This document shows positions 5,972 through 27,234 of a DNA stretch of 64,000 nucleotides, one piece after another. The notes under the pieces are model-generated. The model made no database searches. It saw only the letters and a list, made by a program, of their open reading frames with translations, and was not told the origin of the DNA. The position numbers and the translations under genes are program-made. Each line of letters opens with the position of its first letter. The stretch's first letter is position 1. The DNA comes from Candidatus Omnitrophota bacterium (GTDB lineage Bacteria > Omnitrophota > Gorgyraeia > Gygaellales > JAMWDD01): NCBI GenBank assembly GCA_028717645.1, contig JAQUNK010000001.1, positions 68,794 through 132,793 on the forward strand, in the 5' to 3' direction.

Positions 5972-5978
5972 TATAGAG

Positions 5979-7387: not shown

Positions 7388-7388
7388 A

Positions 7389-7820
7389 ATGAGCCTGAAA
7401 ATAAAAGCTTTAACTAAATCTCTCTGGGTTTTCCATGCTGCTACTTCACCGTGCAATAACTGTGATATCGAAGTGTTGGATCTTTTTACTCCGCGCCATG
7501 ATATTGAAAGATTCGGGATGACCCTAGTGGGAAGCGTTAGGCATGCGGATGTGCTTGTGGTCACTGGTGTGCCTAATTATAAAACTAAAGAAAGGCTGAA
7601 GAAATTATACAGCCAGGTCTCCAAACCGTGTCTGGTGGTGGCCATAGGAAATTGCGCCTGCGGTAGGATTATGTTCAAGGAATCCTACAATAGCCCTTGC
7701 CCGGTGGATGAAGTGGTGCCGGTCGATGTCTATATCCCGGGCTGCCCGCCGAAGCCGGAGGCGATGATCGCGGGGATCGTAAAGCTGATTAATAAACTTA
7801 AAGCAAAAGAGAAGAAATAA
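7389..7820 (+). CDS. [NiFe]-hydrogenase small subunit, NuoB-like (also similar to EchC, MbhJ, HycG).
   Basis: CNNCDIEV, GNCACGR and PGCPPKPEA motifs typical of NuoB-like proximal-cluster subunits. Confidence 0.8.
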   Translation: MSLKIKALTKSLWVFHAATSPCNNCDIEVLDLFTPRHDIERFGMTLVGSVRHADVLVVTGVPNYKTKERLKKLYSQVSKPCLVVAIGNCACGRIMFKESYNSPCPVDEVVPVDVYIPGCPPKPEAMIAGIVKLINKLKAKEKK

Positions 7821-8263
7821 TGCTTGTCCTAGAAAGAGTAAAAGAAAAGTTAGCCAATAAGGCCTTTGATTGGTACGAACATACGCCAAGACGGGTTTAT
7901 TTTAAAATGGACCCCAAGGATATTAAGCATGTGGCGAATGCCTTGTTCAAGGACCTGGGTTTCAGGTTTATTATTGCCACTGGCTGCGATACGCCGGAAG
8001 GCATTGAGATCCTGTACCATTTTGGTTATGACAAGGCCGGCCTGATCGTTTCCGGACGGACGTTATTAAAAGATAAGAAAAAACCAGAAATAGATTCTAT
8101 CGCCCCGTTATTTGTTGGCGCTGAATGGATAGAGCGGGAGATGTGGGAACTTCTGGGGATAAATTTTATCGGGCATCCTAATTTAAAGCACCTGCTTTTG
8201 ATCGATGAATGGCCAAAGGGAGACTATCCTTTGCGCCACGACCTTAAAGAGGGGTCTAAATAA
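7820..8263 (+). CDS. NuoC-like 30-kDa subunit of the hydrogenase (also similar to EchD, MbhK).
   Basis: Overall similarity and length match the NuoC/HycE N-terminal domain. Its position between the small and large subunit genes agrees. Confidence 0.65.
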   Translation: MLVLERVKEKLANKAFDWYEHTPRRVYFKMDPKDIKHVANALFKDLGFRFIIATGCDTPEGIEILYHFGYDKAGLIVSGRTLLKDKKKPEIDSIAPLFVGAEWIEREMWELLGINFIGHPNLKHLLLIDEWPKGDYPLRHDLKEGSK

Positions 8264-9450
8264 TGTCAAAAAAAGTAATTATACCCATAGGGCCGTATCA
8301 CCCGCTGCAAGAAGAACCGGAATTTTTCCGGCTTTTTGTAGAGGGAGAGAAGGTCGTGGATATAGATATCGTCCTGGGTTATATGCACCGTGGCATCGAA
8401 GAGCTGGCTGAGCACAAACATTACGACCAGGTGGCCTTTTTGGTCGAGCGCATCTGCGGGATCTGTTCGAATTCGCATCCTTTTGCTTATGTCAATGCTG
8501 TAGAGAATATAGGTAAGATGGAGGTGCCGGAAAGGGCGCTCTACATCCGCACGATCATCGCGGAGTTGGAAAGATTGCATAGTCATTTATTATGGCTGGG
8601 CCTGGCCGGGCACTTTATCGGTTACAATACCGTCTGGATGTGGTCATGGCGTTATCGCGAGCCGGTGTTGGATTGTTTTGAAATGATCACCGGTAACCGC
8701 CAGCATTACGGAATGATGAAGATAGGCGGTGTCAGGCGTGATATCAAAGATGAAGATGTACCGGTGTTAAAAAAGACCCTTGATGAGTTGGTCCCGGCGT
8801 TAGATATGTTTAAGGGTGCGGTGATGGATGACCCGGTGATCCAGGCGCGGCTTAAGGGCGTGGGCGTGCTTACCAGGAAGCAGGCTATTGAATGGTGCGC
8901 GGTAGGGCCGACTGCCCGGGCGTCGGGAGTGGATATAGATATTCGTAGGGACGATCCTTATGGTGCGTATGATAAAGTAGATTGGAACGTGATCGTAGAA
9001 AAAGACGGCGATATATTTTCTAAAACAGTAGTGCGCATATTGGAGATGTATGAATCAGTAGGTATCATCCGTCAGTGCCTGGACAGGATGCCGAAGGGCG
9101 AGATCGATGCCAATGTCAAAGATATCCCTCCCGGGGAAGGTATCGGTAGAGTTGAGGCGCCGAGGGGCGAATGTTTCCATTATGTAAAAAGCGACGGGAC
9201 CAACCGGCCCCTGCGGCATAAGATCAGAGCGCCCAGTTATATGAATGTGGCAACTAACAAAGTGGCTGCAGTGGGCCAGACGATTTCCGATACGACGATC
9301 ACCCTGGCTGCGGTTGACCCTTGCTACTGCTGTACAGAGAGGGTGATGGTTGTAGACAAGAAGACCAACGGCAAGATCATGGATGGCTTGGACCTGGTAA
9401 GATTGTCCCAGGAAAAGACGGAAAAAATTAAAAAGGCGCTTAAGCAATGA
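8263..9450 (+). CDS. Group 4 [NiFe]-hydrogenase large subunit, NuoD-like (also similar to EchE, MbhL, HycE).
   Basis: N-terminal RICGICSNSH (L1 CxxC) and C-terminal DPCYCCTER (L2 DPCxxC) nickel-iron ligand motifs are both present. Confidence 0.85.
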   Translation: MSKKVIIPIGPYHPLQEEPEFFRLFVEGEKVVDIDIVLGYMHRGIEELAEHKHYDQVAFLVERICGICSNSHPFAYVNAVENIGKMEVPERALYIRTIIAELERLHSHLLWLGLAGHFIGYNTVWMWSWRYREPVLDCFEMITGNRQHYGMMKIGGVRRDIKDEDVPVLKKTLDELVPALDMFKGAVMDDPVIQARLKGVGVLTRKQAIEWCAVGPTARASGVDIDIRRDDPYGAYDKVDWNVIVEKDGDIFSKTVVRILEMYESVGIIRQCLDRMPKGEIDANVKDIPPGEGIGRVEAPRGECFHYVKSDGTNRPLRHKIRAPSYMNVATNKVAAVGQTISDTTITLAAVDPCYCCTERVMVVDKKTNGKIMDGLDLVRLSQEKTEKIKKALKQ

Positions 9451-11117
9451 CCACTAGCCGCTTTTATCCATTACTGAGATTGGACGCCCTGAACAGTTTT
9501 GTGGTTCTGGCCATAGCGTTGTTCTCTGCCCTCACAATAATTTATTCTTTGAAATTCATAAAAGAAAAGCGGCTGCAATATTATACCTATATTATCCTGA
9601 CTGCTTTCGCCTCAATCGGGGTGGTCCTGGCGAACAATCTTATCCTGCTTCTGGTTTTCTGGGGATTTCTGGGCCTGACATTGTATCTATTGGTTAGCAT
9701 GGGCCAGGGCTCGACCGATGCGGCCAAAAAGACCTTGATCATCGTAGGCGGGTCAGACGCCTTGATGCTTTTGGGTGTGGCTATAATTTATTTTCTCACC
9801 GACACCTTTTATCTGGACGCAATAAGGCTGGAGTTTAACAGTAGCCTGGCGGTTATTTCCTATATCTGTATCGCCCTGGCTTGTTTTGCGAAAGCAGGGG
9901 CAATACCGCTACATACTTGGATACCCGACGCTGCTAAGTCAGCGCCTGCTCCGGTAGCCGCCTTTCTGCCTGCATCTTTGGATAAATTATTGGGGATCTA
10001 TTTATTAGCCCGCCTGAATCTGGACCTGTTCACGATGAATACGGCAATGAATACTTTCCTTATGGTTATTGGTGCAGTGACCATAATCACGGCGGTAATG
10101 ATGGCTTTGGTACAGCATAATTTAAAAAGGCTTTTGGGTTATCACGCGGTTTCACAGGTCGGTTATATGGTTTTAGGTATTGGTACGGGAAATCCCATTG
10201 GTATCGCCGGCGGGATATTCCATATGCTGAACCATGCCGTATACAAATCCTGTTTGTTCTTTACCGCGGGTAACATTGAATACCGCGCGAAAACGTCCGA
10301 ACTTGATGAATTAGGGGGATTGGCTAAATTGATGCCGGTTACTTATATTTCCTGTCTGGTAGCCAGCTTTTCCATATCCGGCGTACCGCCTTTTAATGGT
10401 TTCTTCTCTAAATGGATGATCTATCAGGGCCTGGTTACCCAATTACAGAGTGCGGATTACAGGATACAGGCGATAAATATCTTGTGCCTGGCAGCGGCTA
10501 TGTTCGGCTCAGGGCTTACCCTGGCCAGTTTTATGAAGCTAATTCATGCGGCATTTCTTGGCCAACCGAACAATGCGCTCATCCGGCGCTCGTTGCAAGG
10601 AGGGCATAAAGATGAGGTGCCATTCTCCATGTGGCTGCCGCCCTTGATATTAGCGGTTATCTGCGTTGTATTCGGTGTATTCGCTTATCAAATCCCGCTC
10701 AGGGTTTTTATTTTTCCCGCTGTGCCGGGAGTAGATTTTATCGGGACGTGGTTTGCCGGGTTATCTACTTTATTGATTGCTTCAGGACTTGTTTTAGGAT
10801 TATTTATATTTAGATCAAGAGGCCTGGGGTCTTTCATCCGGCAGGATGCGGCCTTTATGGGTTGTGAACCGGAAGACCTGGATAAACACCGGATCACCGG
10901 AATAGAATTTTATAACACGATAAAAGAATACGGCATATTAAAAGGGATTTATCAGAAGGCCGAATCAGGAGTTTATGATATCTACGAACAGGTCAAGAAG
11001 GTTTTGTCCGGCGCAGGCAGGTTCCTGCAATATCTGCATAACGGAGTACTGCCTTCGTATCTGATCTGGGCGCTTTTGGGAATGATCGGTTTATTCCTTA
11101 TTCTGATGAAGGGTTAA
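9447..11117 (+). CDS. NuoL/MrpA-like proton- or sodium-pumping antiporter subunit (also similar to MbhH).
   Basis: 556 aa with about 14 predicted TM segments. Conserved HAVYKSCLFF...GVPPFNGFFSK antiporter-domain motifs. Confidence 0.75.
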   Translation: MTTSRFYPLLRLDALNSFVVLAIALFSALTIIYSLKFIKEKRLQYYTYIILTAFASIGVVLANNLILLLVFWGFLGLTLYLLVSMGQGSTDAAKKTLIIVGGSDALMLLGVAIIYFLTDTFYLDAIRLEFNSSLAVISYICIALACFAKAGAIPLHTWIPDAAKSAPAPVAAFLPASLDKLLGIYLLARLNLDLFTMNTAMNTFLMVIGAVTIITAVMMALVQHNLKRLLGYHAVSQVGYMVLGIGTGNPIGIAGGIFHMLNHAVYKSCLFFTAGNIEYRAKTSELDELGGLAKLMPVTYISCLVASFSISGVPPFNGFFSKWMIYQGLVTQLQSADYRIQAINILCLAAAMFGSGLTLASFMKLIHAAFLGQPNNALIRRSLQGGHKDEVPFSMWLPPLILAVICVVFGVFAYQIPLRVFIFPAVPGVDFIGTWFAGLSTLLIASGLVLGLFIFRSRGLGSFIRQDAAFMGCEPEDLDKHRITGIEFYNTIKEYGILKGIYQKAESGVYDIYEQVKKVLSGAGRFLQYLHNGVLPSYLIWALLGMIGLFLILMKG

Positions 11118-11118
11118 G

Positions 11119-11637
11119 ATGGAAGTACATATTCTTTTGATATTCATGATTATCGGCGCAATAGTGGCTTTGGAGGCTAGAGACTTATTGTCGAGCGTGA
11201 TCGTGCTGGGGGTGGTGAGCTTTGCCCTCTGCTTGGCTTTTCTTATCCTTAAGGCACCGGACTTGGCTATTACGCAACTGGTGGTTGAGATTTTGTGTTT
11301 GATTATCCTGATCAGGGCAACGATCAAGCGGGACTTACCTCTGGCCATAGAAGGCCGCTGGATCTTTAATACCATTTCCACGGTAGTCTTTATTTGCGTG
11401 TTCCTTTATTTTGTCATGCTTGCCTTAAGAGAACTGCCTGTTTTCGGCGAGCCGATAATGGCCGTAGTGAGAGAATACCTGGAAAAAGGCAAGACCGAGA
11501 CCGGAGCGGTGAATCTAGTGACTGCGGTGGTCCTGAATTTCCGCGCCTACGATACGCTCGGTGAGGCGGCAGTCTTATTTACTTCTATCATCGGGATAGT
11601 GGCGGTTTTACGCAGCCCAGGGAAGAAGAAAGATTAG
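11119..11637 (+). CDS. Mrp-complex membrane subunit, MnhB-like DUF4040 domain (similar to MbhD/E).
   Basis: APDLAITQLVVE motif and four predicted TM segments. Confidence 0.6.
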   Translation: MEVHILLIFMIIGAIVALEARDLLSSVIVLGVVSFALCLAFLILKAPDLAITQLVVEILCLIILIRATIKRDLPLAIEGRWIFNTISTVVFICVFLYFVMLALRELPVFGEPIMAVVREYLEKGKTETGAVNLVTAVVLNFRAYDTLGEAAVLFTSIIGIVAVLRSPGKKKD

Positions 11638-12087
11638 ATGGAAAATAAACCAAAGACAGGTATGAGCCTGATAGTCAAGACGATCACCCGCTTGATCGTG
11701 GGTTTAGTTTTGCTTTTCGGCATATATATTGTTTTGCACGGGCATCTTTCTCCGGGTGGTGGTTTTTCCGGAGGGGTGATCGTGGCCTTGTCCTTTGTGC
11801 TGATGATGCTTGCTTTCGGAGAAGACGTGGCTGTGGCAAAAATTTCCAGGAATCTTGCCTCTAACCTGGAAAGTATCGGCGCGCTGATGTTTTTATTCAT
11901 CGCTATTTTAGGTTTTCTGGGCGGTTCATTCTTCTTGAATATATTATCTACGGGAACACCTTTTAAATTATTTAGCGCAGGCACGATTATTTTAAGCAAT
12001 ATTTCTATCGGGATAAAAGTAGGCATAGGATTATTTGCCATATTCCTGGCTTTAGTAATTTTGGAAAAGACAAAGAGGGAAAGGTAA
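11638..12087 (+). CDS. Na+/H+ antiporter subunit B (MnhB/MrpB).
   Basis: HLSPGGGFSGG motif characteristic of the MnhB domain, in a small membrane protein. Confidence 0.65.
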   Translation: MENKPKTGMSLIVKTITRLIVGLVLLFGIYIVLHGHLSPGGGFSGGVIVALSFVLMMLAFGEDVAVAKISRNLASNLESIGALMFLFIAILGFLGGSFFLNILSTGTPFKLFSAGTIILSNISIGIKVGIGLFAIFLALVILEKTKRER

Positions 12088-12091
12088 TTAA

Positions 12092-12430
12092 ATGAGCCTC
12101 TATATATTGTGCATGATATTGTTTTGCATAGGCATTTACGGAGTGCTGCGCAAGCGTAATTTAGTAAAAATTATCATCGGCTTGGCTATTATGGGCTATT
12201 CCATAAATTTATTTCTTGTTCTTTTAGGCTATCGCTTCCACGGCCGGGCGGCTATCGAGGCAGAAACCCAGGATATCTTAAGCATGGTTGACCCGTTGCC
12301 ACAGGCCATGGCGCTTACTTCGATCGTAATCAGTCTGGGGATCCTCGCTTTGGTTATTTCCATCGCCATCAGGATCTACGAAAAATACGGCACGTTCGAT
12401 ATTACCAAGATAAAGAGGCTGAAGGGTTAG
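12092..12430 (+). CDS. Na+/H+ antiporter subunit C (MnhC/MrpC, NuoK-like).
   Basis: 112 aa with three predicted TM segments and NuoK/MnhC-like sequence. Confidence 0.65.
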   Translation: MSLYILCMILFCIGIYGVLRKRNLVKIIIGLAIMGYSINLFLVLLGYRFHGRAAIEAETQDILSMVDPLPQAMALTSIVISLGILALVISIAIRIYEKYGTFDITKIKRLKG

Positions 12431-13939
12431 ATGAAAGACGTAAATATCATTCCTTTATTTGTGATCATTCCGCTTTTGACGGCTTTTTTGATCGCGCTGC
12501 TCGGTAAAACAATAAAAAACTTTTCCGAGAAGATAATTGTCGCAAGCAGCAGTTTGCTCCTGGCTTTTTCTTTGTATTCGCAGATATTGCTTAGGCACAC
12601 TCCGTTAAAGACCTTAGTTTACAATGTCGGCGGATGGCTTCCGCCTTTTGGGATATCCATGGTCTTGGACGGATTAAGCAGTTTTATGCTCATAGTCGTC
12701 AATTTGATCGCTTTCTTCGTGGCCGTATATTCCTTAAGCTATATGGAAAAATATACGGATAAGCCGAAATTCTTCACCTTATTTGCTTTGATGGTTTCTG
12801 GCTTAAATGGCGTAATCGTTACCGGGGATATATTCAATCTTTTCGTATTTTTGGAGATCGCTTCAATTGCCAGTTACGCGCTGGTTGCCTTTGGCACGCA
12901 AGCAGAGGAACTCGAAGCTTCGTTCAAATATACGATCATGGGTACAGTTGCTTCCAGTTTCATATTTCTCGGGATCGTTTTTCTCTATGGTTTTGCCTCG
13001 ACACTGAATATGGCGCACATGGCTTCGGTATTGAATTCTAAATTAAGCATCTGGCTCCTGCCTTTCGTAAGCGTTCTATTTCTGGCGGGTTTTAGTTTGA
13101 AAGCGGCAATGGTCCCTTTCCACGGTTGGCTTCCCGACGCACATTCATCGGCGCCCGCTTCAATTTCCGCTATGCTTTCTGGCGTGTTGATCAAGACGTT
13201 GGGTATTTATGCGATGATGAGAATCTTCTTCAATGTCTTAGGGATAACCCAGGCCCAGTTGAGCATACTGATGTTTTTAGGCTCGCTTTCTATAATTACA
13301 GGCGCGATACTGGCTTTTTCGCAGTGGGATTTCAAAAGATTATTGGCTTATTCTACCATTAGCCAGGTCGGCTATATTGTTTTAGGCCTTGGCTTGGGCA
13401 CGCCGTTGGGAATATTCGGCGCGTTATTCCATTTATTCAACCATTCGGTGTTTAAATCACTGCTTTTTTTAAATTCCGGAGCAGTAGACTATGCCGCCAG
13501 CACCCGAGACCTAAGAGAAACAGGGGGGTTAAACAAAGTAATGCCTGTGACTACCAAGACCAATTTTATCGCCTCGATGTCCATTTCCGGCATACCGCCA
13601 TTCAGTGGATTTTTCAGTAAGCTGATCATTATTTTTGCTTGTATCCAAAAGGGCCATATCGGATACGGCTTATGCGCGGTAATAGGGAGCATTTTAACCT
13701 TGATCTATTTTATGAAATTGCAAAAGTTCGTCTTTTTAGGCGAGCTGAAAGATAAATTTAAGCAGATAGCAGAAGTTCCTTACCTGATGAGGTTTTCTAT
13801 GATTTGCCTCGCTGCCATCTGTATTTTGGCAGGTTTTCTGCTTCTTCCTGCCTTAAGGCCATTTTTGGACAGGGCCTCGGATGTTTTATTGGGCGGTACT
13901 AATTATGCGGCCGCTGTTATGGGGGCTGCTCTAAGATAA
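12431..13939 (+). CDS. Na+/H+ antiporter subunit D (MnhD/MrpD, NuoM/N-like).
   Basis: 502 aa with about 14 predicted TM segments. WLPDAHSSAPASISAMLSGV and GIPPFSGFFSK antiporter motifs. Confidence 0.75.
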   Translation: MKDVNIIPLFVIIPLLTAFLIALLGKTIKNFSEKIIVASSSLLLAFSLYSQILLRHTPLKTLVYNVGGWLPPFGISMVLDGLSSFMLIVVNLIAFFVAVYSLSYMEKYTDKPKFFTLFALMVSGLNGVIVTGDIFNLFVFLEIASIASYALVAFGTQAEELEASFKYTIMGTVASSFIFLGIVFLYGFASTLNMAHMASVLNSKLSIWLLPFVSVLFLAGFSLKAAMVPFHGWLPDAHSSAPASISAMLSGVLIKTLGIYAMMRIFFNVLGITQAQLSILMFLGSLSIITGAILAFSQWDFKRLLAYSTISQVGYIVLGLGLGTPLGIFGALFHLFNHSVFKSLLFLNSGAVDYAASTRDLRETGGLNKVMPVTTKTNFIASMSISGIPPFSGFFSKLIIIFACIQKGHIGYGLCAVIGSILTLIYFMKLQKFVFLGELKDKFKQIAEVPYLMRFSMICLAAICILAGFLLLPALRPFLDRASDVLLGGTNYAAAVMGAALR

Positions 13940-14433
13940 TGAAAAACAAAATTACTTTATTTATTATCTGGTATATCCTTTGGATGTGCTTAACCTGGCC
14001 GTTCGACCCTGAGCACGCGATAGTAGGTATCGCCGTTGCGGGATTCATTACCTTTATTACTAGTGATCTATTTACGCCGAGGCTGGAACATTTTGGCCAG
14101 ATAAACAGGTATTTATGGTTTTTCTATTTCGTATTTTTGTTCCTCGGGGAGTGTTTAAAGGCAAATATCAATGTGGCAATAAGGGTTCTTAACCCAAAAT
14201 TACCTATTCATCCCGGTATTGTTAAGGTAAAGACAGATTTGAAATCGGAGATAGGCATCACCTTTTTGGGAAATTGTCTTACACTTGCCTCGGGCACACT
14301 CTGTGTAGATGTTGACCAGGAAAGAAGATTTCTTTATGTCCACTCACTTGATGTCAAATCTCAAGATACTGGAGAATCAGCGCAATTGATCGTAAATAAG
14401 TTTGAAAAAGTTCTAGAGAGGATTTTTGAATGA
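13939..14433 (+). CDS. Na+/H+ antiporter subunit E (MnhE/MrpE).
   Basis: Size, N-terminal TM pair, and position between the mrpD and mrpF homologs. Confidence 0.55.
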   Translation: MKNKITLFIIWYILWMCLTWPFDPEHAIVGIAVAGFITFITSDLFTPRLEHFGQINRYLWFFYFVFLFLGECLKANINVAIRVLNPKLPIHPGIVKVKTDLKSEIGITFLGNCLTLASGTLCVDVDQERRFLYVHSLDVKSQDTGESAQLIVNKFEKVLERIFE

Positions 14434-14792
14434 TGAAGACCCTACGTTATTTCCTGGGCATGATCTTACTATTAGCGGCGTTATTATTGGTGAGCCTTTA
14501 CCCGTTACCGTCGCTATTGAATTGGCAGTCGCCTTTTTTGGCGCACTGTTTTTTCATCTTCATGCTTTGTTTCCTGATCTGTATTATTAGGATAATTATC
14601 GGGCCGACCTCTGCGGACAGGGCGGTGGTCATCAATACTTTGGGGATCTTTATTGTCGGTTTCTGCGCCATATTAAGTATTCCCACGGGCAGGGATTGGT
14701 ATCTGGATATTGCCATTGCCTGGGCGCTGCAGAGCTTCGTGGGGGCCCTCGCCTTTGCCAAGTATTTAGAGGGAAGGGGGTTCGATGAATAA
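14430..14792 (+). CDS. Na+/H+ antiporter subunit F (MnhF/MrpF).
   Basis: 120 aa with three predicted TM segments, at the MrpF position. Confidence 0.55.
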   Translation: MMKTLRYFLGMILLLAALLLVSLYPLPSLLNWQSPFLAHCFFIFMLCFLICIIRIIIGPTSADRAVVINTLGIFIVGFCAILSIPTGRDWYLDIAIAWALQSFVGALAFAKYLEGRGFDE

Positions 14793-15108
14793 TATTATCG
14801 GCACCGTATTTATTATTATAGGGTTGGTATTCGATGTTATCGGCTGTATCGGGCTTATTCGTTTTCCCGATGTCTACAGCCGTTTGCAGTCCAGTACCAA
14901 ATGCGCTGTTTTAGGCACTGTAAGCATTCTTCTCGGTACTTTTATTATCAGAGGGGTGAGCCCCACGGGCGTCAAGGCGTTTTTAACCGCGGTATTTTTG
15001 TTGCTTACTGCACCCGTAGCAGCGCATGCACTGGCGCGAGGCGCATATAAGTCTGCGGCAAGGCTTTGGGAAAAATCTGTTTGCGACGATTACGCTGAAA
15101 ATAAGTGA
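14785..15108 (+). CDS. Na+/H+ antiporter subunit G (MnhG/MrpG).
   Basis: GLIRFPDVYSRLQSSTK matches the MnhG signature (RFPD.Y.RLHA). Confidence 0.7.
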   Translation: MNNIIGTVFIIIGLVFDVIGCIGLIRFPDVYSRLQSSTKCAVLGTVSILLGTFIIRGVSPTGVKAFLTAVFLLLTAPVAAHALARGAYKSAARLWEKSVCDDYAENK

Positions 15109-15118
15109 GGACACAATC

Positions 15119-15718
15119 TTGAGATATCCTAAATTACGTGAATTAAAAGAAGCGATCAAGGCCCTGATCAAGGGGCCATATACGTCCAAGTTCCCCTTAA
15201 AGGCGCATAAACCTTTCCCGCGGTTCAGGGGCAGGCCCGAATACCATGAAGAGGATTGCGTAGGTTGTGGCGCCTGTTTTCAGGTCTGTCCGGCCAAAGC
15301 CATTGAAATGCAGGATATCGGAACAAAGAGGATCCTGACCGTACATTGGGATATGTGCGTTTTCTGCGGGCAATGCCAGGCAAATTGCATTACGGAGAAA
15401 GGTATTATGCTTTCAAACGAATTCGATCTGGCTACTACTGAGAAGAGGGAAGACCTTAAGCAGGAAATAGAAAAAGAATTCGTAGTTTGCACTTGCTGTG
15501 GTGAAAGGATCGTGCCGCGCGACCATATTTTATGGGTGGCCAAAAAGGTTGGTCCGCTGGTATTTTCAAACGCTTCTTTAATGCTTTTCTATTTAGAGAA
15601 CCTTGGAGTATCTGAGGAAAGCAAATCTTCTAAACCATCTGCGCAGGAATTTTCACGCGCCGACAGGATAAAAGTGCTTTGTCCCAAGTGCCGGCGCGAG
15701 GCAGTGATCCAATCCTAA
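15119..15718 (+). CDS. NuoI-like 2x[4Fe-4S] ferredoxin subunit (similar to MbhN), with a C-terminal CxxC...CxxC zinc-ribbon extension.
   Basis: CVGCGACFQVCP and CVFCGQCQANC motifs, plus C-terminal CTCCGER...CPKC. The ORF-track start at 15026 overlaps mnhG by 83 nt. A TTG at 15119 preceded by GTGAGGA (SD-like) is the more likely start. Confidence 0.6.
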   Translation: MRYPKLRELKEAIKALIKGPYTSKFPLKAHKPFPRFRGRPEYHEEDCVGCGACFQVCPAKAIEMQDIGTKRILTVHWDMCVFCGQCQANCITEKGIMLSNEFDLATTEKREDLKQEIEKEFVVCTCCGERIVPRDHILWVAKKVGPLVFSNASLMLFYLENLGVSEESKSSKPSAQEFSRADRIKVLCPKCRREAVIQS

Positions 15719-15740: not shown

Positions 15741-16919
15741 ATGTGTTATTCTATTCCCGGTAAAGTTATCGCGATCAAAGAAAACATCGTTTCGGTCGAC
15801 TATTTTGGCGAAGATAAGAAAGCAAAAAATGATTTTTTCACGCTAAAATTAGGCGACTATGTTTATGCGCAGGGCGGCTTTGTGGTGCAGAAGATCTCTG
15901 AACGAGAGGCGCTGCCGGTTCTGGAAAGCTGGAAGGAGCTCTTTGTTAAACTCCAAGAGGCGGACCTTAAGCTTTCGCAAAACCCCAAGACGCTTTATCA
16001 GCGGGCAAACTATATCCGCAATAAATATCTGGGCAATGCCTGTTGTATCCACGGGATCATTGAATTTTCCAATTATTGCCGTTCGGATTGCCTTTATTGC
16101 GGGATAAGAAAAAGCAATACCGTGCTTAAGCGCTACCGCATGGAACCAGAGGAGATAGTAAAGACGGCGGTGGATGCGGTAAAAACTTTAGGTTTTAAGG
16201 CGCTGGTGCTACAATCCGGCGAAGATACCTGGTATGATGACGATAAGCTTGTGGAGATAGTCAAAAAAATAAGGGAAAAAGCCGCGGTCCTCTTGGTTCT
16301 AAGCATCGGAGAAAGGGGCATAAAAACATATCAGAAACTTTATGATGCTGGGGCACGCGGAGCGCTCCTGCGTTTTGAAACAAGCAATCCGGCTTTGTAT
16401 GAGAAGATGCGGCCGGCTCACAAACTAGCGGAGCGTGTGGAATTGCTTAAAGAATTACGTGAAATGGGTTATCTGACCATGACCGGATTCCTGATCGGCA
16501 CACCCGGCCAGACAGATGAAGATATCCAAAATGATATCAAGCTTACCGCTAGCCTCGGTACGGATATGTTTTCCTTTGGCCCGTTCATCCCACATCCGGG
16601 CACACCCTTAGGTAAAAATTCTGCGCCTGGGCTAGACCGCGTTTTAAGCGTAATTGCCAATACCCGCCTAAGCTACCCAGAGGCAAAGATCCTGGTGACC
16701 ACGGCCATGGAGACACTGGATAAAGAGAATGGGATGAAGTTCGGGCTTTTATCTGGAGGCAATTCGCTGATGGTAAATTTGACTCCTGCCCAATACCAGC
16801 GGCTCTACGATATCTACCCGGATCGGGCAGGTGTCGCAGAAGACGTTGTCCAAAGAATCAATTCTGCAATAAAATTACTCTATTCCCTTGGCCGCGCACC
16901 GGCTGACCTCGGCCTCTAA
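15741..16919 (+). CDS. Fusion protein with an N-terminal HypC/HupF-like domain joined to a HydE-type radical SAM enzyme ([FeFe]-hydrogenase maturase family).
   Basis: The N-terminus MCYSIPGKV...GDYVYAQGGFVVQKISEREA matches the HypC fold (MCxxxP, GD.V.V..GFA...EA). The remainder is colinear with HydE: IIEFSNYCRSDCLYCGIRKSN...RYRMEPEEIV, LVLQSGED, FIPHPGTPL, NLTPAQYQRLYDIYP. Confidence 0.7.
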   Translation: MCYSIPGKVIAIKENIVSVDYFGEDKKAKNDFFTLKLGDYVYAQGGFVVQKISEREALPVLESWKELFVKLQEADLKLSQNPKTLYQRANYIRNKYLGNACCIHGIIEFSNYCRSDCLYCGIRKSNTVLKRYRMEPEEIVKTAVDAVKTLGFKALVLQSGEDTWYDDDKLVEIVKKIREKAAVLLVLSIGERGIKTYQKLYDAGARGALLRFETSNPALYEKMRPAHKLAERVELLKELREMGYLTMTGFLIGTPGQTDEDIQNDIKLTASLGTDMFSFGPFIPHPGTPLGKNSAPGLDRVLSVIANTRLSYPEAKILVTTAMETLDKENGMKFGLLSGGNSLMVNLTPAQYQRLYDIYPDRAGVAEDVVQRINSAIKLLYSLGRAPADLGL

Positions 16920-16990: not shown

Positions 16991-17020
16991 TTGCAAGACT
17001 TATCCGGCCGAGGTTATAAT
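16991..17020 (+). promoter_or_regulatory. Sigma70-like promoter (TTGCAA-17/18 nt-TATAAT) for nadE.
   Basis: TTGCAA at 16991-16996 and TATAAT at 17015-17020. The SD AAGGAG lies 6 nt before the ATG at 17047. Confidence 0.5.
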
Positions 17021-17046: not shown

Positions 17047-18735
17047 ATGATTTTACGCATCGCTATGGCCCAGATCAACAGCTGGTTGGGCGATTTTAAG
17101 TATAATACGGACAAGATCTATAACTTTATCAATAAGGCTAAGGCCGCGCAGTGCGATATCGTAATATTCCCTGAATTAGCCATACCGGGTTATCCTCCTG
17201 AAGACCTCATCTACAAAAAAGATTTCTTGAGGGAAAATAAACATTATCTGGATTTGATCCGGGATTTTAGCAAAGATATCGGTGTGGTGGTTGGTTTTGT
17301 CGAAGAAGAGAAGGGTAAAATTTATAATAGCGCCGCATTCATCTATAACAGGCGACTCTGCGGGGTTTATAGAAAAATGCACTTGCCTAATTATGGCGTG
17401 TTTGATGAAAAGCGTTATTTTTCATCCGGGGCGGATTTTAAAATTTATGATTTTGGCGGCGTAAAGATCGGCCTGGATATCTGCGAAGATATCTGGGAGG
17501 GTGGGCCGATACCGGAGCAGGCAAAGGCAGGCAGCTCAATAATTTTTGCCATTAACGCCTCGCCCTTTCATCAGGGCAAGATGGACTTACGTATGGATAC
17601 CCTAAAAGAGCAAGCTAAAGAGAACAAAGTCTATATCGCCTATACGAACTTAGTCGGCGGGCAGGATGAATTGATCTTTGACGGCAGAAGCATCCTGATC
17701 GATACGAAGGGGAAAACATTGGTCCAGGGGAAAGCATTTGCAGAGGATTTATGCCTTTATGATATCGACCCTAAAAGTTTACCTAAGAAAAAAGTGAATC
17801 ATAAAAAATTAGTCAGGATTCCGGTAAAGAGATCGGTCATAGAAGCTGTTAAAGAGCCGTTGACGATTAAAGAAAGTGCCAAGCTCGACCCAGCTGAGGA
17901 AATTTATAAGGCATTAGTTTTGGGACTGCGAGATTATGTGTTAAAGAACAGTTTTAAGAAAGTGGTTTTAGGTTTAAGCGGCGGCATCGACTCTGCTTTA
18001 GTCTCGGCATTAGCTATGGATGCGTTAGGCAAAGAAAATGTCATTGGTGTATTTATGCCGTCCCAATTTACCTCAGGAGAAAGTAAGGAAGACGCGCTGG
18101 CCGTGGCGAATAATTTAGGGATCAATATCCACACGATCTCTATCCAGGATATTTTCTTAAAATATCTGGAAGGGTTAGCGCCGCAGTTCCAAGGTACTAC
18201 CAGGGGCATTGCCGAAGAAAATGTGCAGGCGCGTATCAGAGGGAATATCTTGATGGCGCTTTCTAACAAATTCGGCTGGTTGGTTCTGACCACTGGAAAT
18301 AAAAGCGAAATCAGTGTCGGGTATACTACTTTATACGGTGATGCCGCAGGAGGCTTTGCGCCGATCAAGGACGTACCCAAGACATTGGTCTATGAATTAG
18401 CCAGGTATAGAAATTCTCTTTCCCGCCCGATAATCCCTGAAAGGGTTTTTAGCAAAGCGCCGACCGCGGAACTAAGGGAGAATCAAAAGGACCAGGATAC
18501 GCTTCCGCCCTATGAGGTCCTAGACCCGATATTAAAGGCTTATATTGAGGATGAGAAGTCTTTGGACAAGATCGTCGCTTCAGGTTTTGATAGAGAGGTC
18601 GTAAAACTGACCATTGAGATGGTTGATAAAAATGAATATAAACGCCGGCAGTCCGCTCCGGGGATCAAGATTACGCCCAAGGCCTTTGGCCGTGACCGCC
18701 GCATGCCGATCACGAATAGATTCAAACAATTCTAA
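17047..18735 (+). CDS. nadE: Glutamine-dependent NAD+ synthetase.
   Basis: N-terminal CN-hydrolase domain (MAQINSWLGD...FPELAIPGYPPED) plus a C-terminal NAD-synthetase PP-loop (GLSGGIDSALV). Confidence 0.9.
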   Translation: MILRIAMAQINSWLGDFKYNTDKIYNFINKAKAAQCDIVIFPELAIPGYPPEDLIYKKDFLRENKHYLDLIRDFSKDIGVVVGFVEEEKGKIYNSAAFIYNRRLCGVYRKMHLPNYGVFDEKRYFSSGADFKIYDFGGVKIGLDICEDIWEGGPIPEQAKAGSSIIFAINASPFHQGKMDLRMDTLKEQAKENKVYIAYTNLVGGQDELIFDGRSILIDTKGKTLVQGKAFAEDLCLYDIDPKSLPKKKVNHKKLVRIPVKRSVIEAVKEPLTIKESAKLDPAEEIYKALVLGLRDYVLKNSFKKVVLGLSGGIDSALVSALAMDALGKENVIGVFMPSQFTSGESKEDALAVANNLGINIHTISIQDIFLKYLEGLAPQFQGTTRGIAEENVQARIRGNILMALSNKFGWLVLTTGNKSEISVGYTTLYGDAAGGFAPIKDVPKTLVYELARYRNSLSRPIIPERVFSKAPTAELRENQKDQDTLPPYEVLDPILKAYIEDEKSLDKIVASGFDREVVKLTIEMVDKNEYKRRQSAPGIKITPKAFGRDRRMPITNRFKQF

Positions 18736-18742
18736 CAATTCA

Positions 18743-19567
18743 ATGGAAGAAAAATTAGCCAAATTAAAAAATATTTTAGGCCGTATAGATTCTGCGTTGG
18801 TTGCTTATTCCGGCGGAGTAGACAGTACCTTTTTACTCAAGGTTGTTTGTGATTGTTTAAGAAAAGAAAGAGTATTGGCTGTAACTGCGAATTCCGAGAC
18901 TTATCCCAGTGATGAATTAAAACTTGCCAGGCGCCTGGCCGATAAATTCAGGGTTAGGCATTTGATTATCGAGACGAGCGAATTACATAATCCGAAATTC
19001 AGCAATAACCCGGTTAACCGCTGTTATTATTGCAAGCGCGAACTTTTTTCCAGGCTCAAAGAGATCGCCCGGGATGAAAAAATAGAATATGTTTTGGATG
19101 CAACGCAGGCTTCGGATAGTTTTGATTTTCGTCCCGGAGACAAAGCCAAAAAAGAATTAGGCATTCGTTCGCCATTAAAAGAAGCAGGCTTTACTAAAGA
19201 AGACGTCCGGCAATTAAGCAAAAAATTCAAACTTCCTACCTGGGATATGCCGTCAAAAGCATGCCTGGCATCCAGGTTCCCTTATGGGATGAGGATAACC
19301 CGGGATGGTCTGCGCCGCGTTGAGAAAGCAGAAAAGATCATAAGATCCCTGGGCTTTTCGCAGGTCAGGGTACGTAATTATGACAGTACCGCGAAGATAG
19401 AAGTGGAAAAAGGCAAAGTTCCTTTTTTGATTTCAAAGTTGAGGCCAGAGAACTTGGCCAAAATCAAGAAAATAGGCTATAAATATATTACCGTGGATTT
19501 AGAAGGCTACAGAACCGGCAGTATGAACGAGGGTATAAAATTCGAAGCACGAAATCCTAAATCCTAA
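18743..19567 (+). CDS. larE: LarE-like ATP-dependent sulfur transferase (PP-loop ATP pyrophosphatase, TIGR00268 family).
   Basis: PP-loop AYSGGVDSTFLL, with three conserved Cys (RCYYCKR and KACLASR). The in-frame ATG at 18743 is preferred over the ORF-track start at 18614, which overlaps nadE. Confidence 0.6.
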   Translation: MEEKLAKLKNILGRIDSALVAYSGGVDSTFLLKVVCDCLRKERVLAVTANSETYPSDELKLARRLADKFRVRHLIIETSELHNPKFSNNPVNRCYYCKRELFSRLKEIARDEKIEYVLDATQASDSFDFRPGDKAKKELGIRSPLKEAGFTKEDVRQLSKKFKLPTWDMPSKACLASRFPYGMRITRDGLRRVEKAEKIIRSLGFSQVRVRNYDSTAKIEVEKGKVPFLISKLRPENLAKIKKIGYKYITVDLEGYRTGSMNEGIKFEARNPKS

Positions 19568-19610
19568 GCAAATCACAAATCCAAAATCTCAATGGTCCAA
19601 ACTAAAATGT

Positions 19611-19675
19611 TTAGAATTTGGAAAATTAGAATTTCGAATTTGTTTCGGGTTTCGATATTAGAATTTCGAATTTGT
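19611..19675. repeat. Direct repeats of ATTAGAATTTCGAATTTGT upstream of the cysteine desulfurase gene.
   Basis: Perfect 19-bp copies at 19625-19643 and 19657-19675, plus a partial copy (TTAGAATTTGG) at 19611-19621. Each contains the TTCGAA core. Confidence 0.6.
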
Positions 19676-19714
19676 CCAATAATTTAAAGCAATACATTAT
19701 AAAGTGAGGTTAAA

Positions 19715-20878
19715 ATGAAGCGTATATATTTTGATTATGCCGCCACTGCACCTACGGATCCGGAAGTTCTAAAAGCAATGCAGCCGTATTTTACCGAAAA
19801 GTTCGGCAATCCTTCCAGTATCCATTCTTTTGGGCAGGAGGCAAAAAAAGGTATTGAAGACGCGCGCGAGATCCTGGCTAATTTTATTGGCGCTAGCCCG
19901 GATGAAATTATTTTTACTTCCGGCGGGACAGAATCGGACAATTTTGCCCTGGAAGGCGTGGCTTATGCCCTGAAGGCAAAAGGAAACCACATTATTACCA
20001 GTGCCATCGAGCATCATGCGATCACCGAGGTAGCGAAATTCATGGAAAAGCACGATTTTAAGGTTACCTTGGTGGGTGTGGATAAATACGGCATGGTCAA
20101 TCCTGATGATATCAGGAAGGCAATTACGGATAAAACCATCCTTATTTCCGTAATGCATGCAAATAATGAAATCGGTACGATCCAGCCGATCGCGGAAATA
20201 GGAAAGATCGCCAAGGAAAAGGGGATCGCTTTCCATACCGACGCAGTCCAGACCATAGGCCATATTCCGGTTAACGTGAATGATCTCGGCGTAGATCTAC
20301 TTTCGCTTTCTGCGCATAAATTTTACGGGCCAAAAGGAGTAGGTGCGCTTTATGTCAGGAAAGGCACGCGCATAAACCGGTTCTTGCATGGCGGCGACCA
20401 GGAAAAAGGCAGGCGCGCTTCTACGCAGAATACTCCCGGTATTGTCGGCTTGGGCAAGGCGATCGAGATCTGCAAATTAAAGATGAGTGAGGAAACGGCT
20501 TTACAGAGCAAATGGCGGGATAGGTTGATCAAAGAGATCCCCGCCAGGATCCCTGATGTATTGCTCAATGGCCATCCGACCTCGCGGCTGCCGAATAATG
20601 TCAATTTCTCGATCAAGTACGTCGAAGGCGAGTCCATGATCCTGCATTTGGATATGCTTGGCGTGGCGGTATCTACCGGTTCAGCCTGTACTTCCGGTTC
20701 GCTTGAGCCGTCGCATGTGCTTCTGGCCACGGGCCTGACCCATGAATTGGCCCACGGTTCGGTGCGCATTACCTTAGGCAGATACAATACAGATAGTGAA
20801 ATAGATTATTTTCTAAATAACTTTCCGCAAATTGTAGAAAACCTGCGTAAGATGTCTCCGCTTTACGAAAAGAAATAA
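19715..20878 (+). CDS. iscS: Cysteine desulfurase (IscS/NifS class, class V aminotransferase).
   Basis: PLP-lysine motif SAHKFYGPKGVGALYV and an active-site Cys loop (STGSACTSGS). Confidence 0.85.
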   Translation: MKRIYFDYAATAPTDPEVLKAMQPYFTEKFGNPSSIHSFGQEAKKGIEDAREILANFIGASPDEIIFTSGGTESDNFALEGVAYALKAKGNHIITSAIEHHAITEVAKFMEKHDFKVTLVGVDKYGMVNPDDIRKAITDKTILISVMHANNEIGTIQPIAEIGKIAKEKGIAFHTDAVQTIGHIPVNVNDLGVDLLSLSAHKFYGPKGVGALYVRKGTRINRFLHGGDQEKGRRASTQNTPGIVGLGKAIEICKLKMSEETALQSKWRDRLIKEIPARIPDVLLNGHPTSRLPNNVNFSIKYVEGESMILHLDMLGVAVSTGSACTSGSLEPSHVLLATGLTHELAHGSVRITLGRYNTDSEIDYFLNNFPQIVENLRKMSPLYEKK

Positions 20879-21834
20879 TGCGTGATAGGATCTTAGAGTA
20901 TCTAAAAAAGACCGACAGTTATATTTCAGGCGAAGAATTGAGCCGGCATCTGAAGGTAAGCCGCGCTGCCGTCTGGAAACATATCCAGGAGTTGCGGCTT
21001 TCCGGCTACGAGATCGTCGCTGTACCGCATCTGGGGTATCATCTCACTGCCTGCCCGGATAAGCTTCTTCCCCAGGAAATTTCTTTCGGCCTGGAGACAA
21101 AATCATTCGGCAAAAAGATCTATTATTATGACACTATCGGCTCGACCATGGACGCAGCTATGGAGGCGGGATTAAAGGGTGCCCTAGAAGGCACGGTAAT
21201 TATCGCCGAAACGCAGACCAAGGGCCGCGGCAGGCTCGCTCGCCATTGGCTTTCGCCCAAATACAAAGGAATTTATTTTTCTTTGATCCTGCGGCCGAAA
21301 TTATTGCCCCAGGAAACACCCCGTTTAACGCTGCTGAGCGCCGTAGCGGTTTGCGAAGCGATAAAAGAGGTAAGCCGCCTGGATGTTAATATCAAGTGGC
21401 CCAATGATATTCTCATTAATGAGAAAAAACTCGGCGGGATATTGACTGAATTAAGCGCAGAAACCGATGAAGTGCGCTTCATTGTTATCGGTATCGGCAT
21501 TAATGTGAATACGGATAAAACTCAAGCCCTACCGCATGCCACATCCCTTAAGGAAGAAAATGGAGAAACGATCAGCCGTGCGGCGCTAGTGAAGGCAATA
21601 TTAAAAAGGCTGGAAATAAATTACCAAATTTTTAAAAAACAGGGCTTCCATCCGATAATCGATAAATGGAGGCACTTTTCCAGCACCTTAGGTTCGCGGA
21701 TCAAGGTAACTTGTCAGAAGGAGCACATCGAGGGCGAGGCAATAGATATAGACATGGACGGCGGGCTCCTGGTGCGCAAGGACTCCGGTTTTATCGAAAA
21801 GGTTATGGCTGGAGACGTGGTGAAATTGGGTTGA
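20878..21834 (+). CDS. birA: Bifunctional biotin--[acetyl-CoA-carboxylase] ligase and biotin operon repressor.
   Basis: N-terminal HTH (ISGEELSRHLKVSRAAVWKHI), GRGRLARHW ligase motif and a C-terminal SH3-like domain. Confidence 0.85.
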   Translation: MRDRILEYLKKTDSYISGEELSRHLKVSRAAVWKHIQELRLSGYEIVAVPHLGYHLTACPDKLLPQEISFGLETKSFGKKIYYYDTIGSTMDAAMEAGLKGALEGTVIIAETQTKGRGRLARHWLSPKYKGIYFSLILRPKLLPQETPRLTLLSAVAVCEAIKEVSRLDVNIKWPNDILINEKKLGGILTELSAETDEVRFIVIGIGINVNTDKTQALPHATSLKEENGETISRAALVKAILKRLEINYQIFKKQGFHPIIDKWRHFSSTLGSRIKVTCQKEHIEGEAIDIDMDGGLLVRKDSGFIEKVMAGDVVKLG

Positions 21835-21858
21835 CAAAGCCACGTTTGGTGTTATAAT
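21831..21858 (+). promoter_or_regulatory. Sigma70-like promoter (TTGACA-16 nt-TATAAT) driving the FMN riboswitch and rib operon.
   Basis: TTGACA at 21831-21836 overlaps the birA stop codon. TATAAT lies at 21853-21858. Confidence 0.6.
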
Positions 21859-21865
21859 ATAAATA

Positions 21866-21982
21866 ATCTTCGGGGCAGGGTGTAAATCCCGACCGGCGGT
21901 AAAGCCCGCAACCCCCGGCAATAAGCTGGGGCTGATCTGGTGAGATTCCAGGGCCGATGGTATAGTCCAGATGGAAGAAGAT
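21866..21982 (+). ncRNA. FMN riboswitch (RFN element) aptamer.
   Basis: CTTCGGGGCAGGGTGTAAATCCCGACCGGCGGTAAAGCCCGCAA...GGTGAGATTCCAGGGCCGATGGTATAGTCCAGATGGAAGAAGA matches the conserved RFN core, and the P1 strands pair (TCTTC/GAAGA). It lies upstream of ribBA and ribH. Confidence 0.85.
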
Positions 21983-21994
21983 AAAAAGGATAAC

Positions 21995-22030
21995 TGTCCC
22001 CGAAGTCTATTTCGGGGATTTTTTTTTAAT
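21995..22030 (+). terminator. Intrinsic terminator (riboswitch expression platform).
   Basis: TCCCCGAAG-tctat-TTCGGGGA hairpin followed by a T9 run. Its 5' strand CCCCGAAG is complementary to CTTCGGGG at the aptamer 5' end, which would allow an antiterminator to form. Confidence 0.75.
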
Positions 22031-26418: not shown

Positions 26419-27234
26419 TTGATAAACAGAATAAAGAGTGTTAAACTTAAATTTATGTATAAGTCTAAGAATAATAGTATGTTAAGAGCCATTGCTATAG
26501 CGGTATTATTCCTTATTATCCGTTTCCTATTCCTGCAAAATAATGCCTGGCAGTCAAATATATTATTATTGATAGCCTTAGGCCTGATCACGATCGTCGC
26601 GACATACCGTTATCCTTTGATCAAGGGCCTGGTTATCGCCACAGCCTTACTTTACGCGTTCATCCTTCTTTCTTTTTATACCCTTTGGGCCGGGGCTAGA
26701 TTCCATGACTATTTAGCTCCTGCCAGCGTTATTCTGGTTACTTATGCCTGCGTTGCTTTATATAAATATTTTTCCTGTTTTGCCAAAGGTATCCAGCTTA
26801 AGGACAAGGCCCTTATCGATACTTCGACCGGCTTATATATACAGAGATACTTTGAAGTAAGGCTGGAAAGTGAATTTAACCAGGCCATGCGCAGGTGTTA
26901 CCCTTTTTCTGTAGTGGCGGTATCTTTTGATGCAGACCTGAAAAGCGTAAGCTTGATCATAAAAAATTATTCGCGTAAACAGGACTTCGTCGCTTATTGC
27001 GGAAAAGAGAAGATCTACGCATTGCTTCCCGGGACAAAAGAAAAAGGGGCATTGGTCTACGCCGAGAAACTTAAAAAGGCCGTAGAAAACACCTTGAAAG
27101 TAAACATCAGTTTGGGTATAGTCAATTATCCGGACGCAGACGCAGGCTCATGGCAGAAAATTTTAGAATACGCCGAAGAGGCCTTACGCAAATCCCAAGA
27201 AACACGCGCCATATATGTTTACCGGAATCATTGA
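26419..27234 (+). CDS. Membrane protein with a degenerate GGDEF-like C-terminal domain, probably not catalytic.
   Basis: Four N-terminal predicted TM segments, then TGLYIQRYF...FSVVAVSFDAD...DFVAYCGKEKIYALLPG. The GGDEF signature is replaced by CGKEK. The true start could be an internal Met at 26455 or 26479. Confidence 0.5.
   Translation: MINRIKSVKLKFMYKSKNNSMLRAIAIAVLFLIIRFLFLQNNAWQSNILLLIALGLITIVATYRYPLIKGLVIATALLYAFILLSFYTLWAGARFHDYLAPASVILVTYACVALYKYFSCFAKGIQLKDKALIDTSTGLYIQRYFEVRLESEFNQAMRRCYPFSVVAVSFDADLKSVSLIIKNYSRKQDFVAYCGKEKIYALLPGTKEKGALVYAEKLKKAVENTLKVNISLGIVNYPDADAGSWQKILEYAEEALRKSQETRAIYVYRNH

Follow-up and report, generated by a model that had tools for sequence, protein, structure and literature searches.

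The window analysed here is a stretch of 64,000 nucleotides from Candidatus Omnitrophota bacterium (assembly GCA_028717645.1, contig JAQUNK010000001.1, positions 68,794 to 132,793 of the forward strand) that consists overall of housekeeping genes in a single-strand run. We examined a locus within it in which larE, a gene of the family that inserts sulfur during nickel-pincer nucleotide (NPN) cofactor synthesis, stands between an NAD synthetase gene and a cysteine desulfurase gene, in the order nadE, larE, nifS, birA, all on the + strand. An earlier note, made from the sequence alone, had described the first three of these as clustered, and we confirmed each of them at its coordinates; birA, the fourth conserved member of the block, was missing from that note.

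Genes and signals of the larE locus

The larE gene (18743..19567, +) encodes a 274 amino acid protein annotated as a [4Fe-4S]-type LarE-family ATP-dependent sulfur insertase. Its match to TIGR00268 scored 318 bits (cutoff 150) and spanned model positions 1-259 of 259, with the runner-up family below 30 bits, and the assignment to the LarE/TIGR00268 family made in the earlier note was thus upheld over the full model. We placed the larE start at the ATG at 18743, 7 nucleotides past the nadE stop codon, where the list of open reading frames (ORFs) opens at a TTG at 18614 instead. Directly downstream, nifS (19715..20878, +) encodes a NifS-type (class I) cysteine desulfurase that scored 580 bits against TIGR03402 (cutoff 530.75), whereas the IscS models remained below their own cutoffs. 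It contains K202 in the motif SAHKFYGPKG and C325 in TGSACTS, which, as in IscS and NifS, would be the lysine that binds pyridoxal phosphate (PLP) and the catalytic loop cysteine, respectively. No nifU gene adjoins nifS in the window.

On the other side of larE, nadE (17047..18735, +) encodes a glutamine-dependent NAD+ synthetase (NF010588, 738 bits, cutoff 479; PF00795 and PF02540) and is preceded by an AGGAG ribosome-binding site ahead of its ATG. The protein has an N-terminal nitrilase-type glutaminase domain, with the motifs FPEL at 41, YRKMHLP at 108 and CEDIW at 146, and a C-terminal PP-loop synthetase domain with SGGIDS at 311; by analogy with nitrilase-type glutaminases, we read E43, K110 and C146 as the presumed catalytic triad. 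The block ends with birA (20878..21834, +), encoding a bifunctional biotin ligase/repressor (TIGR00121, 237 bits; HTH_11, BPL and BPL_C domains), the start codon of which overlaps the nifS stop codon (TAATG).

A promoter-like site, TTGCAA-18-TATAAT, is located 5' of nadE (16991..17020, +); it is a 10/12 match to the consensus and nothing more, and the number of promoter-like sites across the region equals the shuffle expectation. From this site onward, no terminator-like site was found on the + strand before 21996..22019, which is the terminator of a flavin mononucleotide (FMN) riboswitch (21862..21986, +; RF00050, 117 bits versus a gathering score of 66) preceding the riboflavin operon. The upstream promoter-like site and this first terminator therefore bound nadE-larE-nifS-birA as one block. 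The riboswitch has a promoter of its own (21831..21858, +) that matches the sigma-70 consensus perfectly (TTGACA-16-TATAAT, preceded by an upstream TG), and the riboflavin operon that follows comprises ribBA (22228), ribH, nusB, a PHP-domain gene, ribD, a GGDEF-domain gene (26419-27234) and ribE.

The larE-nifS spacer is 147 nucleotides long and contains operator-like direct repeats (19611..19675, +), consisting of two exact copies of the 19-nucleotide sequence ATTAGAATTTCGAATTTGT, at 19625-19643 and 19657-19675 (32 nucleotides apart), and a third, partial copy at 19611-19623. The sequence is unique to this spacer in the window, where its 2 matches compare with 0.04 expected and were reached in 0/100 shuffles, and it was not found in relatives whose larE and nifS overlap. 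The repeats, which resemble an operator in their arrangement upstream of nifS, are followed by a possible TTGTCC / TATAAA promoter and then by a GTGAGG ribosome-binding site for nifS. Given the repeats and the possible -35/-10 pair, nifS and birA may also be transcribed and regulated separately.

Conserved residues of LarE and comparison with characterised enzymes

The window LarE is 100% identical, at the same length, to an NCBI entry named 'ATP-dependent sacrificial sulfur transferase LarE [Candidatus Omnitrophica bacterium]', and the same four-gene block is also present on contig JAQTTE010000092.1 of GCA_028710905.1. We aligned the protein with the LarE proteins of L. plantarum (Lp) and M. 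maripaludis (Mm) and with 80 homologs from GTDB species genomes. Its PP-loop, AYSGGVDSTFLL, carries SGGVDS at residue 23 (S23-G-G-V-D-S28). The earlier note had described a three-cysteine protein on the basis of the motifs RCYYCKR and KACLASR; both motifs are present, but the protein has five cysteines in all (C36, C38, C94, C97 and C174), among which only C94 and C97 of the first motif and C174 of the second are invariant in 80/80 homologs, unlike C36 and C38. These three residues also align with the cysteines of M. maripaludis LarE.

The wider set of diagnostic residues (the PP-loop SGGxDS, NRCYYCK, ACLASR with C174, S177 and R178, and R209 and R211) was invariant or nearly so among the 80 homologs, S177 being present in 78 of them and R209 and R211 in all. 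[quoted passage not shown] This invariance was independent of whether larE was accompanied by larB and larC (16 loci), by mnmA (22 loci) or by a cysteine desulfurase gene (6 loci: five with nifS and one with a TIGR01977-type gene). The grouping with tRNA thiolases that the earlier note had named as an argument against a LarE role was not seen: the MnmA, TtcA, TtuA and ThiI models gave no match to the protein at E <= 1e-3, and TilS_N alone appeared, at 26.7 bits, below its cutoff; where mnmA neighbours larE at other loci, it is a gene distinct from larE. The [4Fe-4S]-dependent tRNA thiolases TtuA and TtcA have their superfamily and a proposed [4Fe-5S] chemistry in common with LarE (PMC9283937), but the window LarE has no family-level match to them.

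Most LarE homologs have SGGxDS together with CxxC...C (PMC9283937), and the LarE of the window is therefore of the ordinary majority type, rather than the special variant that the earlier note had taken it to be. In the LarE of T. maritima these cysteines bind a [4Fe-4S] cluster needed for activity (Chatterjee et al. 2022, PMC9283937). The window protein is like T. maritima LarE in its SGGxDS PP-loop, its CxxC...C cysteines and its Ser/Arg/Arg phosphate site, and by analogy is expected to act in the same manner, catalytically and not sacrificially, a cysteine desulfurase providing the non-core sulfide. The two differ in that T. maritima LarE has a fourth cysteine adjoining the motif, where the window LarE has an alanine (A173).

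The likeness to L. plantarum LarE (PDB 5UDQ; 36.8% identity over 258 aligned residues, E 2e-51) extends to the PP-loop, the SRFPYG and VRVR substrate-phosphate motifs and the overall length. However, W97 and A100 of that protein occupy the positions of C94 and C97, and its single sulfur donor, Cys176, lies one residue off C174, a shift that was also noted for T. maritima (PMC9283937). L. plantarum LarE is a sacrificial enzyme in which Cys176 yields its own sulfur and becomes dehydroalanine. The archaeal LarE of M. maripaludis (PDB 8CNZ/8CP3/8CP4) is 32.6% identical (E 2e-26 for 8CNZ), and its cysteines (NRCYNCK ... DTCMATR) align with C94, C97 and C174; it is far more divergent than the bacterial [4Fe-4S] LarEs and is without the PYG segment past the third cysteine.

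By these residues and family scores, the window protein is a genuine LarE-family member of the [4Fe-4S] (CxxC...C) type, as the earlier note had read it in preference to the single sacrificial cysteine, and by analogy with the characterised enzymes C94, C97 and C174 would ligate the cluster. The label 'sacrificial' in the NCBI name is therefore mechanistically inappropriate for this protein, and is wrong in the same way for the majority LarE type.

Gene neighbourhoods of larE homologs

We took the ORFs up to 6 kb from larE at 80 homolog loci (designated by L numbers; 48-69% LarE identity), grouped them into clusters, checked the main clusters against NCBIfam, and added three further relatives from other collections (L088/89, L090 and L091). 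The NCBIfam check identified MnmA (434 bits), the TilS N-domain, LarB (304 bits) and LarC (228 and 161 bits) among the neighbours. Three contexts recurred. Clusters of larE-larB-larC were present at 14-16 loci, nearly all from Bacillota/Clostridia with one Thermoplasmata archaeon in addition, and the verified clusters contained LarE homologs 48-52% identical to that of the window.

The second context was mnmA, which was the immediate and often overlapping neighbour of larE at 21 loci, usually with tilS-ftsH-folP downstream; 18 of these are from Omnitrophota and the rest from Planctomycetia, Schekmanbacteria and a deltaproteobacterial metagenome-assembled genome. In L045, a locus from Geobacteraceae, mnmA and larE are about 900 bp apart. 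The mnmA-larE arrangement forms a conserved block of panB, a panE-like gene, a MeTr-like gene, a DRTGG/Pta-N-like gene, apbE, mnmA and larE, followed after other genes by tilS, ftsH and folP, and larE is directly downstream of mnmA at L008, L014-L016, L021, L028, L033, L036, L038, L042, L046, L058, L060, L065, L074-L077, L081 and L082.

The third context was that of the window. The order larE-nifS-birA was found in eight relatives (L003, L004, L005, L006, L067, L088/89, L090 and L091), with LarE identities to the window of 77% for L088/89, 63% for L090 and 61% for L091, and birA followed nifS in every relative whose contig reaches that far. In six of the eight, larE and nifS overlap by 4 nucleotides while LarE identity falls to 57-77%, and this overlap indicates translational coupling. 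A pairing of the same kind was found in an unrelated lineage that groups with Bacillota (L037), where larE overlaps by 4 nucleotides a gene for a class-V 'cysteine desulfurase family protein' of another subfamily than the window NifS (TIGR01977, 432 bits, cutoff 377). The linkage of larE to a cysteine desulfurase gene is conserved and in part convergent. In a neighbor-joining tree, the nifS-linked LarEs, including that of the window, formed one clade with an mnmA-linked Omnitrophota group as its sister, and the larBC-linked LarEs were interspersed, with no deep split among the context groups.

Upstream of larE the gene content was variable. Only the window, L003, L088/89 and L090 have nadE immediately upstream of larE; a TadA-like gene intervenes in L006, and other genes take its place in L004, L005, L067 and L091. 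Apart from nadE, the genes found at this position were those for an HcyBio protein with a NIL-ferredoxin, an Rrf2 regulator or a glycosyltransferase. The earlier note had connected nadE to larE through nicotinic acid adenine dinucleotide (NaAD), but this connection is weak given the few relatives that keep the arrangement, and we rejected the idea that the nadE-larE adjacency marks a NaAD branch-point operon as too patchily conserved. NadE, which makes NAD from NaAD, a pool shared with LarB, is probably an incidental or loosely linked neighbour and not a member of the pathway.

Other genes of sulfur metabolism also recurred near larE. In L004 (1281-2904) and L091 (4158-6000), the genes immediately upstream of larE-nifS-birA encode a sulfur-incorporating enzyme of the HcyBio type (PF01837) and a NIL-ferredoxin; cysK is near larE in L004, L018, L025, L045 and L061, and we found a 73 amino acid NifU-like gene near larE in L091 and an Rrf2/IscR-like regulator gene in L067. 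The HcyBio-linked pair of loci also has metX/metW and cysK nearby. In L090, moaA, moaC, a MOSC gene and moaB are located upstream, and a biotin operon is downstream of birA.

Proposed sulfur supply to LarE and alternative explanations

Dedicated desulfurase-acceptor gene pairs, in which the gene for a class-V PLP-dependent desulfurase lies beside that for its PP-loop sulfurtransferase, are exemplified by YrvO-MnmA and NifZ-ThiI of B. subtilis. The larE-nifS pair of the window and the mnmA-larE pairs of other Omnitrophota fit this logic, although YrvO-MnmA and NifZ-ThiI target tRNA, whereas the LarE target is a small-molecule cofactor precursor. For LarE itself, E. coli IscS with cysteine gave catalytic turnover of a [4Fe-4S] LarE in vitro (PMC9283937). 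The earlier suggestion that the neighbouring desulfurase donates sulfur to LarE is therefore plausible, in view of the conserved and often coupled larE-nifS synteny, the independent pairing in L037 and this published transfer. LarE is probably not the only protein that NifS supplies, since other sulfur clients need to be served as well.

We consider it likely that 18743-19567 encodes a genuine catalytic [4Fe-4S] LarE that carries out the sulfur-insertion step of NPN cofactor synthesis with the neighbouring NifS as its sulfur donor. The steps that we propose for the sulfur transfer and the cluster chemistry are modelled on T. maritima LarE and E. coli IscS. C94, C97 and C174 would hold a [4Fe-4S] cluster with its fourth iron free, and NifS, with PLP on K202, would take sulfur from free L-cysteine and hold it as a persulfide on C325. 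This sulfur would be handed to the free iron of the cluster to give a [4Fe-5S] species, the non-core sulfide of which would attack the acyl-adenylate and form a thiocarboxylate. [quoted passage not shown]

Several observations weigh against this interpretation. We found no larB or larC in the 64-kb window by tblastn with 14 LarB and 12 LarC queries, and family scans of essentially all window ORFs detected no LarA, LarB or LarC, in agreement with the earlier note, which had seen neither larB nor larC here. Nor were lar genes found in about 15 kb of flanking sequence from the same population (about 9 kb on the upstream side and 6 kb on the downstream side, recovered from short contigs that belong to GCA_028710905.1, a Logan assembly and GCA_028713695.1), and larA, larB or larC lay within 10 kb of larE at 0 of about 25 Omnitrophota loci. 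Genomes of relatives are small, at about 1.1-1.25 Mb; this size applies to the closest relative of the window, L003, which corresponds to QZM4_2.bins.406 and belongs to order Gygaellales of class Velamenicoccia. Most Omnitrophota larE genes stand in a housekeeping block by mnmA/tilS, which is unusual for an accessory cofactor pathway. In the window itself, larE and nifS are separated by the 147 nucleotides and the possible promoter described above, and residue 218 of LarE is a lysine, where 80/80 homologs have an arginine (R221 in L. plantarum LarE). Finally, the nifS-linked clade is monophyletic, and the larE-nifS synteny therefore amounts to about one evolutionary event followed by retention. 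The lysine at residue 218 is also present in the identical database entry.

Evidence on whether Omnitrophota have the remaining lar genes came indirectly, from a published table. We covered two Omnitrophota genomes of the KEGG Orthology (KO) table of Seymour 2023; both have K06864 (larE), K06898 (larB) and K09121 (larC), and K22373 (larA) is absent from both on its sheet 'KO counts per genome' (PMC10066038). One of them, GCA_023819605.1, is assigned to order B26-G9 and has a size of 2.26 Mb; the other, GCA_023819315.1, has 1.88 Mb and falls in class Velamenicoccia, as does L003. Scattered lar genes occur elsewhere as well, Haloferax volcanii being one case (PMC8305020), and larB, larC and larE without larA are found in about 15% of the genomes surveyed (PMC11796402). 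We infer that larB and larC are encoded elsewhere in the source genome. A profile of seven LarB sequences searched against a large protein collection returned only Clostridia-type proteins among the 120 matches listed. Our literature search found no paper connecting Omnitrophota with lactate racemase, and lar genes are unmentioned in the text and a supplement of a 2026 preprint on complete Omnitrophota genomes.

The alternative that survives best accepts the same LarE function, with which it is compatible, and disputes the meaning of the gene order: the protein would be a genuine LarE of the NPN pathway, but nadE-larE-nifS-birA would be housekeeping genes kept together by descent, with NifS acting as a general desulfurase for Fe-S assembly, MnmA and other clients. 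A single rearrangement could explain the synteny if, as in our tree, the NifS-linked LarEs are one clade. Housekeeping genes without relation to one another, all on one strand, make up the rest of the window; different genes precede larE in different relatives; and birA, which has no NPN link, is conserved no less strongly than nifS. The desulfurase genes of T. maritima are far from larE (PMC9283937), whereas in the window nifS directly follows larE, and in close relatives the two overlap. Against descent alone, the 4-nucleotide larE/nifS overlap has persisted in six relatives at 57-77% LarE identity, L037 has an independent overlap with a desulfurase gene of another subfamily in an unrelated lineage, and larE is repeatedly found near sulfur genes (mnmA at 22 loci, cysK, HcyBio, and NifU-like and Rrf2/IscR-like genes). 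We regard inherited gene order as an unlikely full account of the locus.

We think it very unlikely that the Omnitrophota LarE uses the same ATP/[4Fe-4S] chemistry to thiolate some other carboxylate or nucleotide, possibly in tRNA modification, and has no part in NPN synthesis. The adjacency of mnmA to larE upstream of tilS-ftsH-folP at 21 loci, 18 of them from Omnitrophota, would suit such a function, as would the lack of larB and larC within 10 kb at any Omnitrophota locus, the retention of larE in very small genomes and the K218 that replaces an otherwise invariant arginine. However, the diagnostic residues, including the P2CMN Ser/Arg/Arg site, are identical across mnmA-, nifS- and larBC-linked proteins, the tree has no deep split between the context groups, and no significant similarity to the MnmA, TtcA, TtuA or ThiI models was found. 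The Geobacteraceae locus L045 also has mnmA near larE, and a LarA homolog has been characterised from G. metallireducens (PMC11770544). A separate substrate is further argued against by the larB and larC genes of the two Omnitrophota genomes covered from the published KO table (PMC10066038), and by the scattering of lar genes in organisms such as Haloferax volcanii (PMC8305020). A tRNA thiolase, as the mnmA neighbour might suggest, was rejected on residues and family scores, and the different thiolation of a nicotinate nucleotide raised in the earlier note is unsupported because all active-site and phosphate-binding residues match those of homologs in larE-larB-larC clusters.

The locus provides genomic support from nature for a desulfurase-fed [4Fe-4S] LarE, so far shown only in vitro with a heterologous partner, and it offers a ready-made LarE-NifS pair for testing. 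Across loci, larE tends to recur among sulfur-trafficking genes (nifS, mnmA, cysK and HcyBio). The picture of NPN biosynthesis is unchanged by the locus: the window LarE is typical and was already annotated, and it is the gene context that is informative.

A DUF362-ferredoxin protein as a possible user of the cofactor

The product of a gene upstream of the locus (2889-3962, +) is a DUF362 protein into which a 2x[4Fe-4S] ferredoxin module is inserted; it is conserved across Omnitrophota, at 54-78% identity. DUF362 (PF04015) and the LarA domain DUF2088 are both members of Pfam clan CL0471 (PMC11770544). An AlphaFold2 model of the protein, built from a 30-sequence alignment, had a predicted local distance difference test score (pLDDT) of 89.4 and a predicted template modelling score (pTM) of 0.87, and its matches fell to a score of 10.7 where the ferredoxin alone was matched; the model predicts a LarA fold. 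By sequence, only the ferredoxin insert matched the PDB.

A profile of the DUF362 N-terminal part matched residues 133-201 of L. plantarum LarA weakly (E 0.67), and the profile of the C-terminal part gave no match. The weak alignment sets the family-invariant H157, K167 and H183 of the DUF362 protein on LarA H174, K184 and H200, with a common motif H-x2-[A/T]-G-F-x4-K. These LarA residues are reported to be the catalytic histidine, the NPN-tethering lysine and the nickel-ligand histidine (Desguin 2015), and the DUF362-ferredoxin protein may thus keep the His/Lys/His cofactor residues of LarA. A regular-expression search for LarA-like motifs over all loci found no LarA. In three DUF362 homolog neighbourhoods we found no lar genes; shikimate-pathway genes were nearby.

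One could combine these observations into a broader scheme in which Omnitrophota make NPN from scattered larB, larC and larE, with NifS feeding LarE, and in which the DUF362-2x[4Fe-4S] protein uses the cofactor instead of LarA. We regard this scheme as distinctly improbable. If it were true, the protein would be a non-LarA NPN enzyme, with a hydride-transfer cofactor wired to iron-sulfur clusters, and would represent the kind of NPN user that has been postulated for the approximately 15% of genomes with larBCE without larA (PMC11796402). As a protein conserved across a phylum that seemingly has larBCE without larA, it is the sole item of the window of possibly wider interest.

Other features of the window and its flanks

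A second DUF362 protein (388 amino acids) is encoded about 2-8 kb upstream of the window, in a cluster (L085 1585-7467, JAQTTE010000040.1) that also holds an aminotransferase gene and three radical SAM genes, one B12-binding and one SPASM. Between the DUF362 gene of the window and the membrane hydrogenase genes, the region 4087-6479 (+) contains genes that resemble sulfhydrogenase beta/gamma or anaerobic sulfite reductase AsrA/AsrB, together with a gene for a HydN-type Fe-S protein; all were below family cutoffs. Farther downstream, ftsA (52629-53888, +) is the last gene of the dcw cell-division cluster (about 38-53.9 kb) and is directly followed by a YggS-family gene (53949-54602, +); ftsZ was not found at its usual position after ftsA in this cluster.

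A gene set of the group-4-like membrane [NiFe] hydrogenase/Mrp type (6476-15718) is immediately followed by a gene (15741-16919, +) that encodes a HypC/HupF domain (PF01455, 47 bits) fused N-terminally to a radical SAM enzyme that matched TIGR03956 (HydE) at 262 bits (cutoff 254.6). A [NiFe] chaperone domain and an [FeFe]-type maturase make an odd combination. The fusion is also present in L003, with 79% identity, where it follows genes for hydrogenase subunits and a maturation protease.

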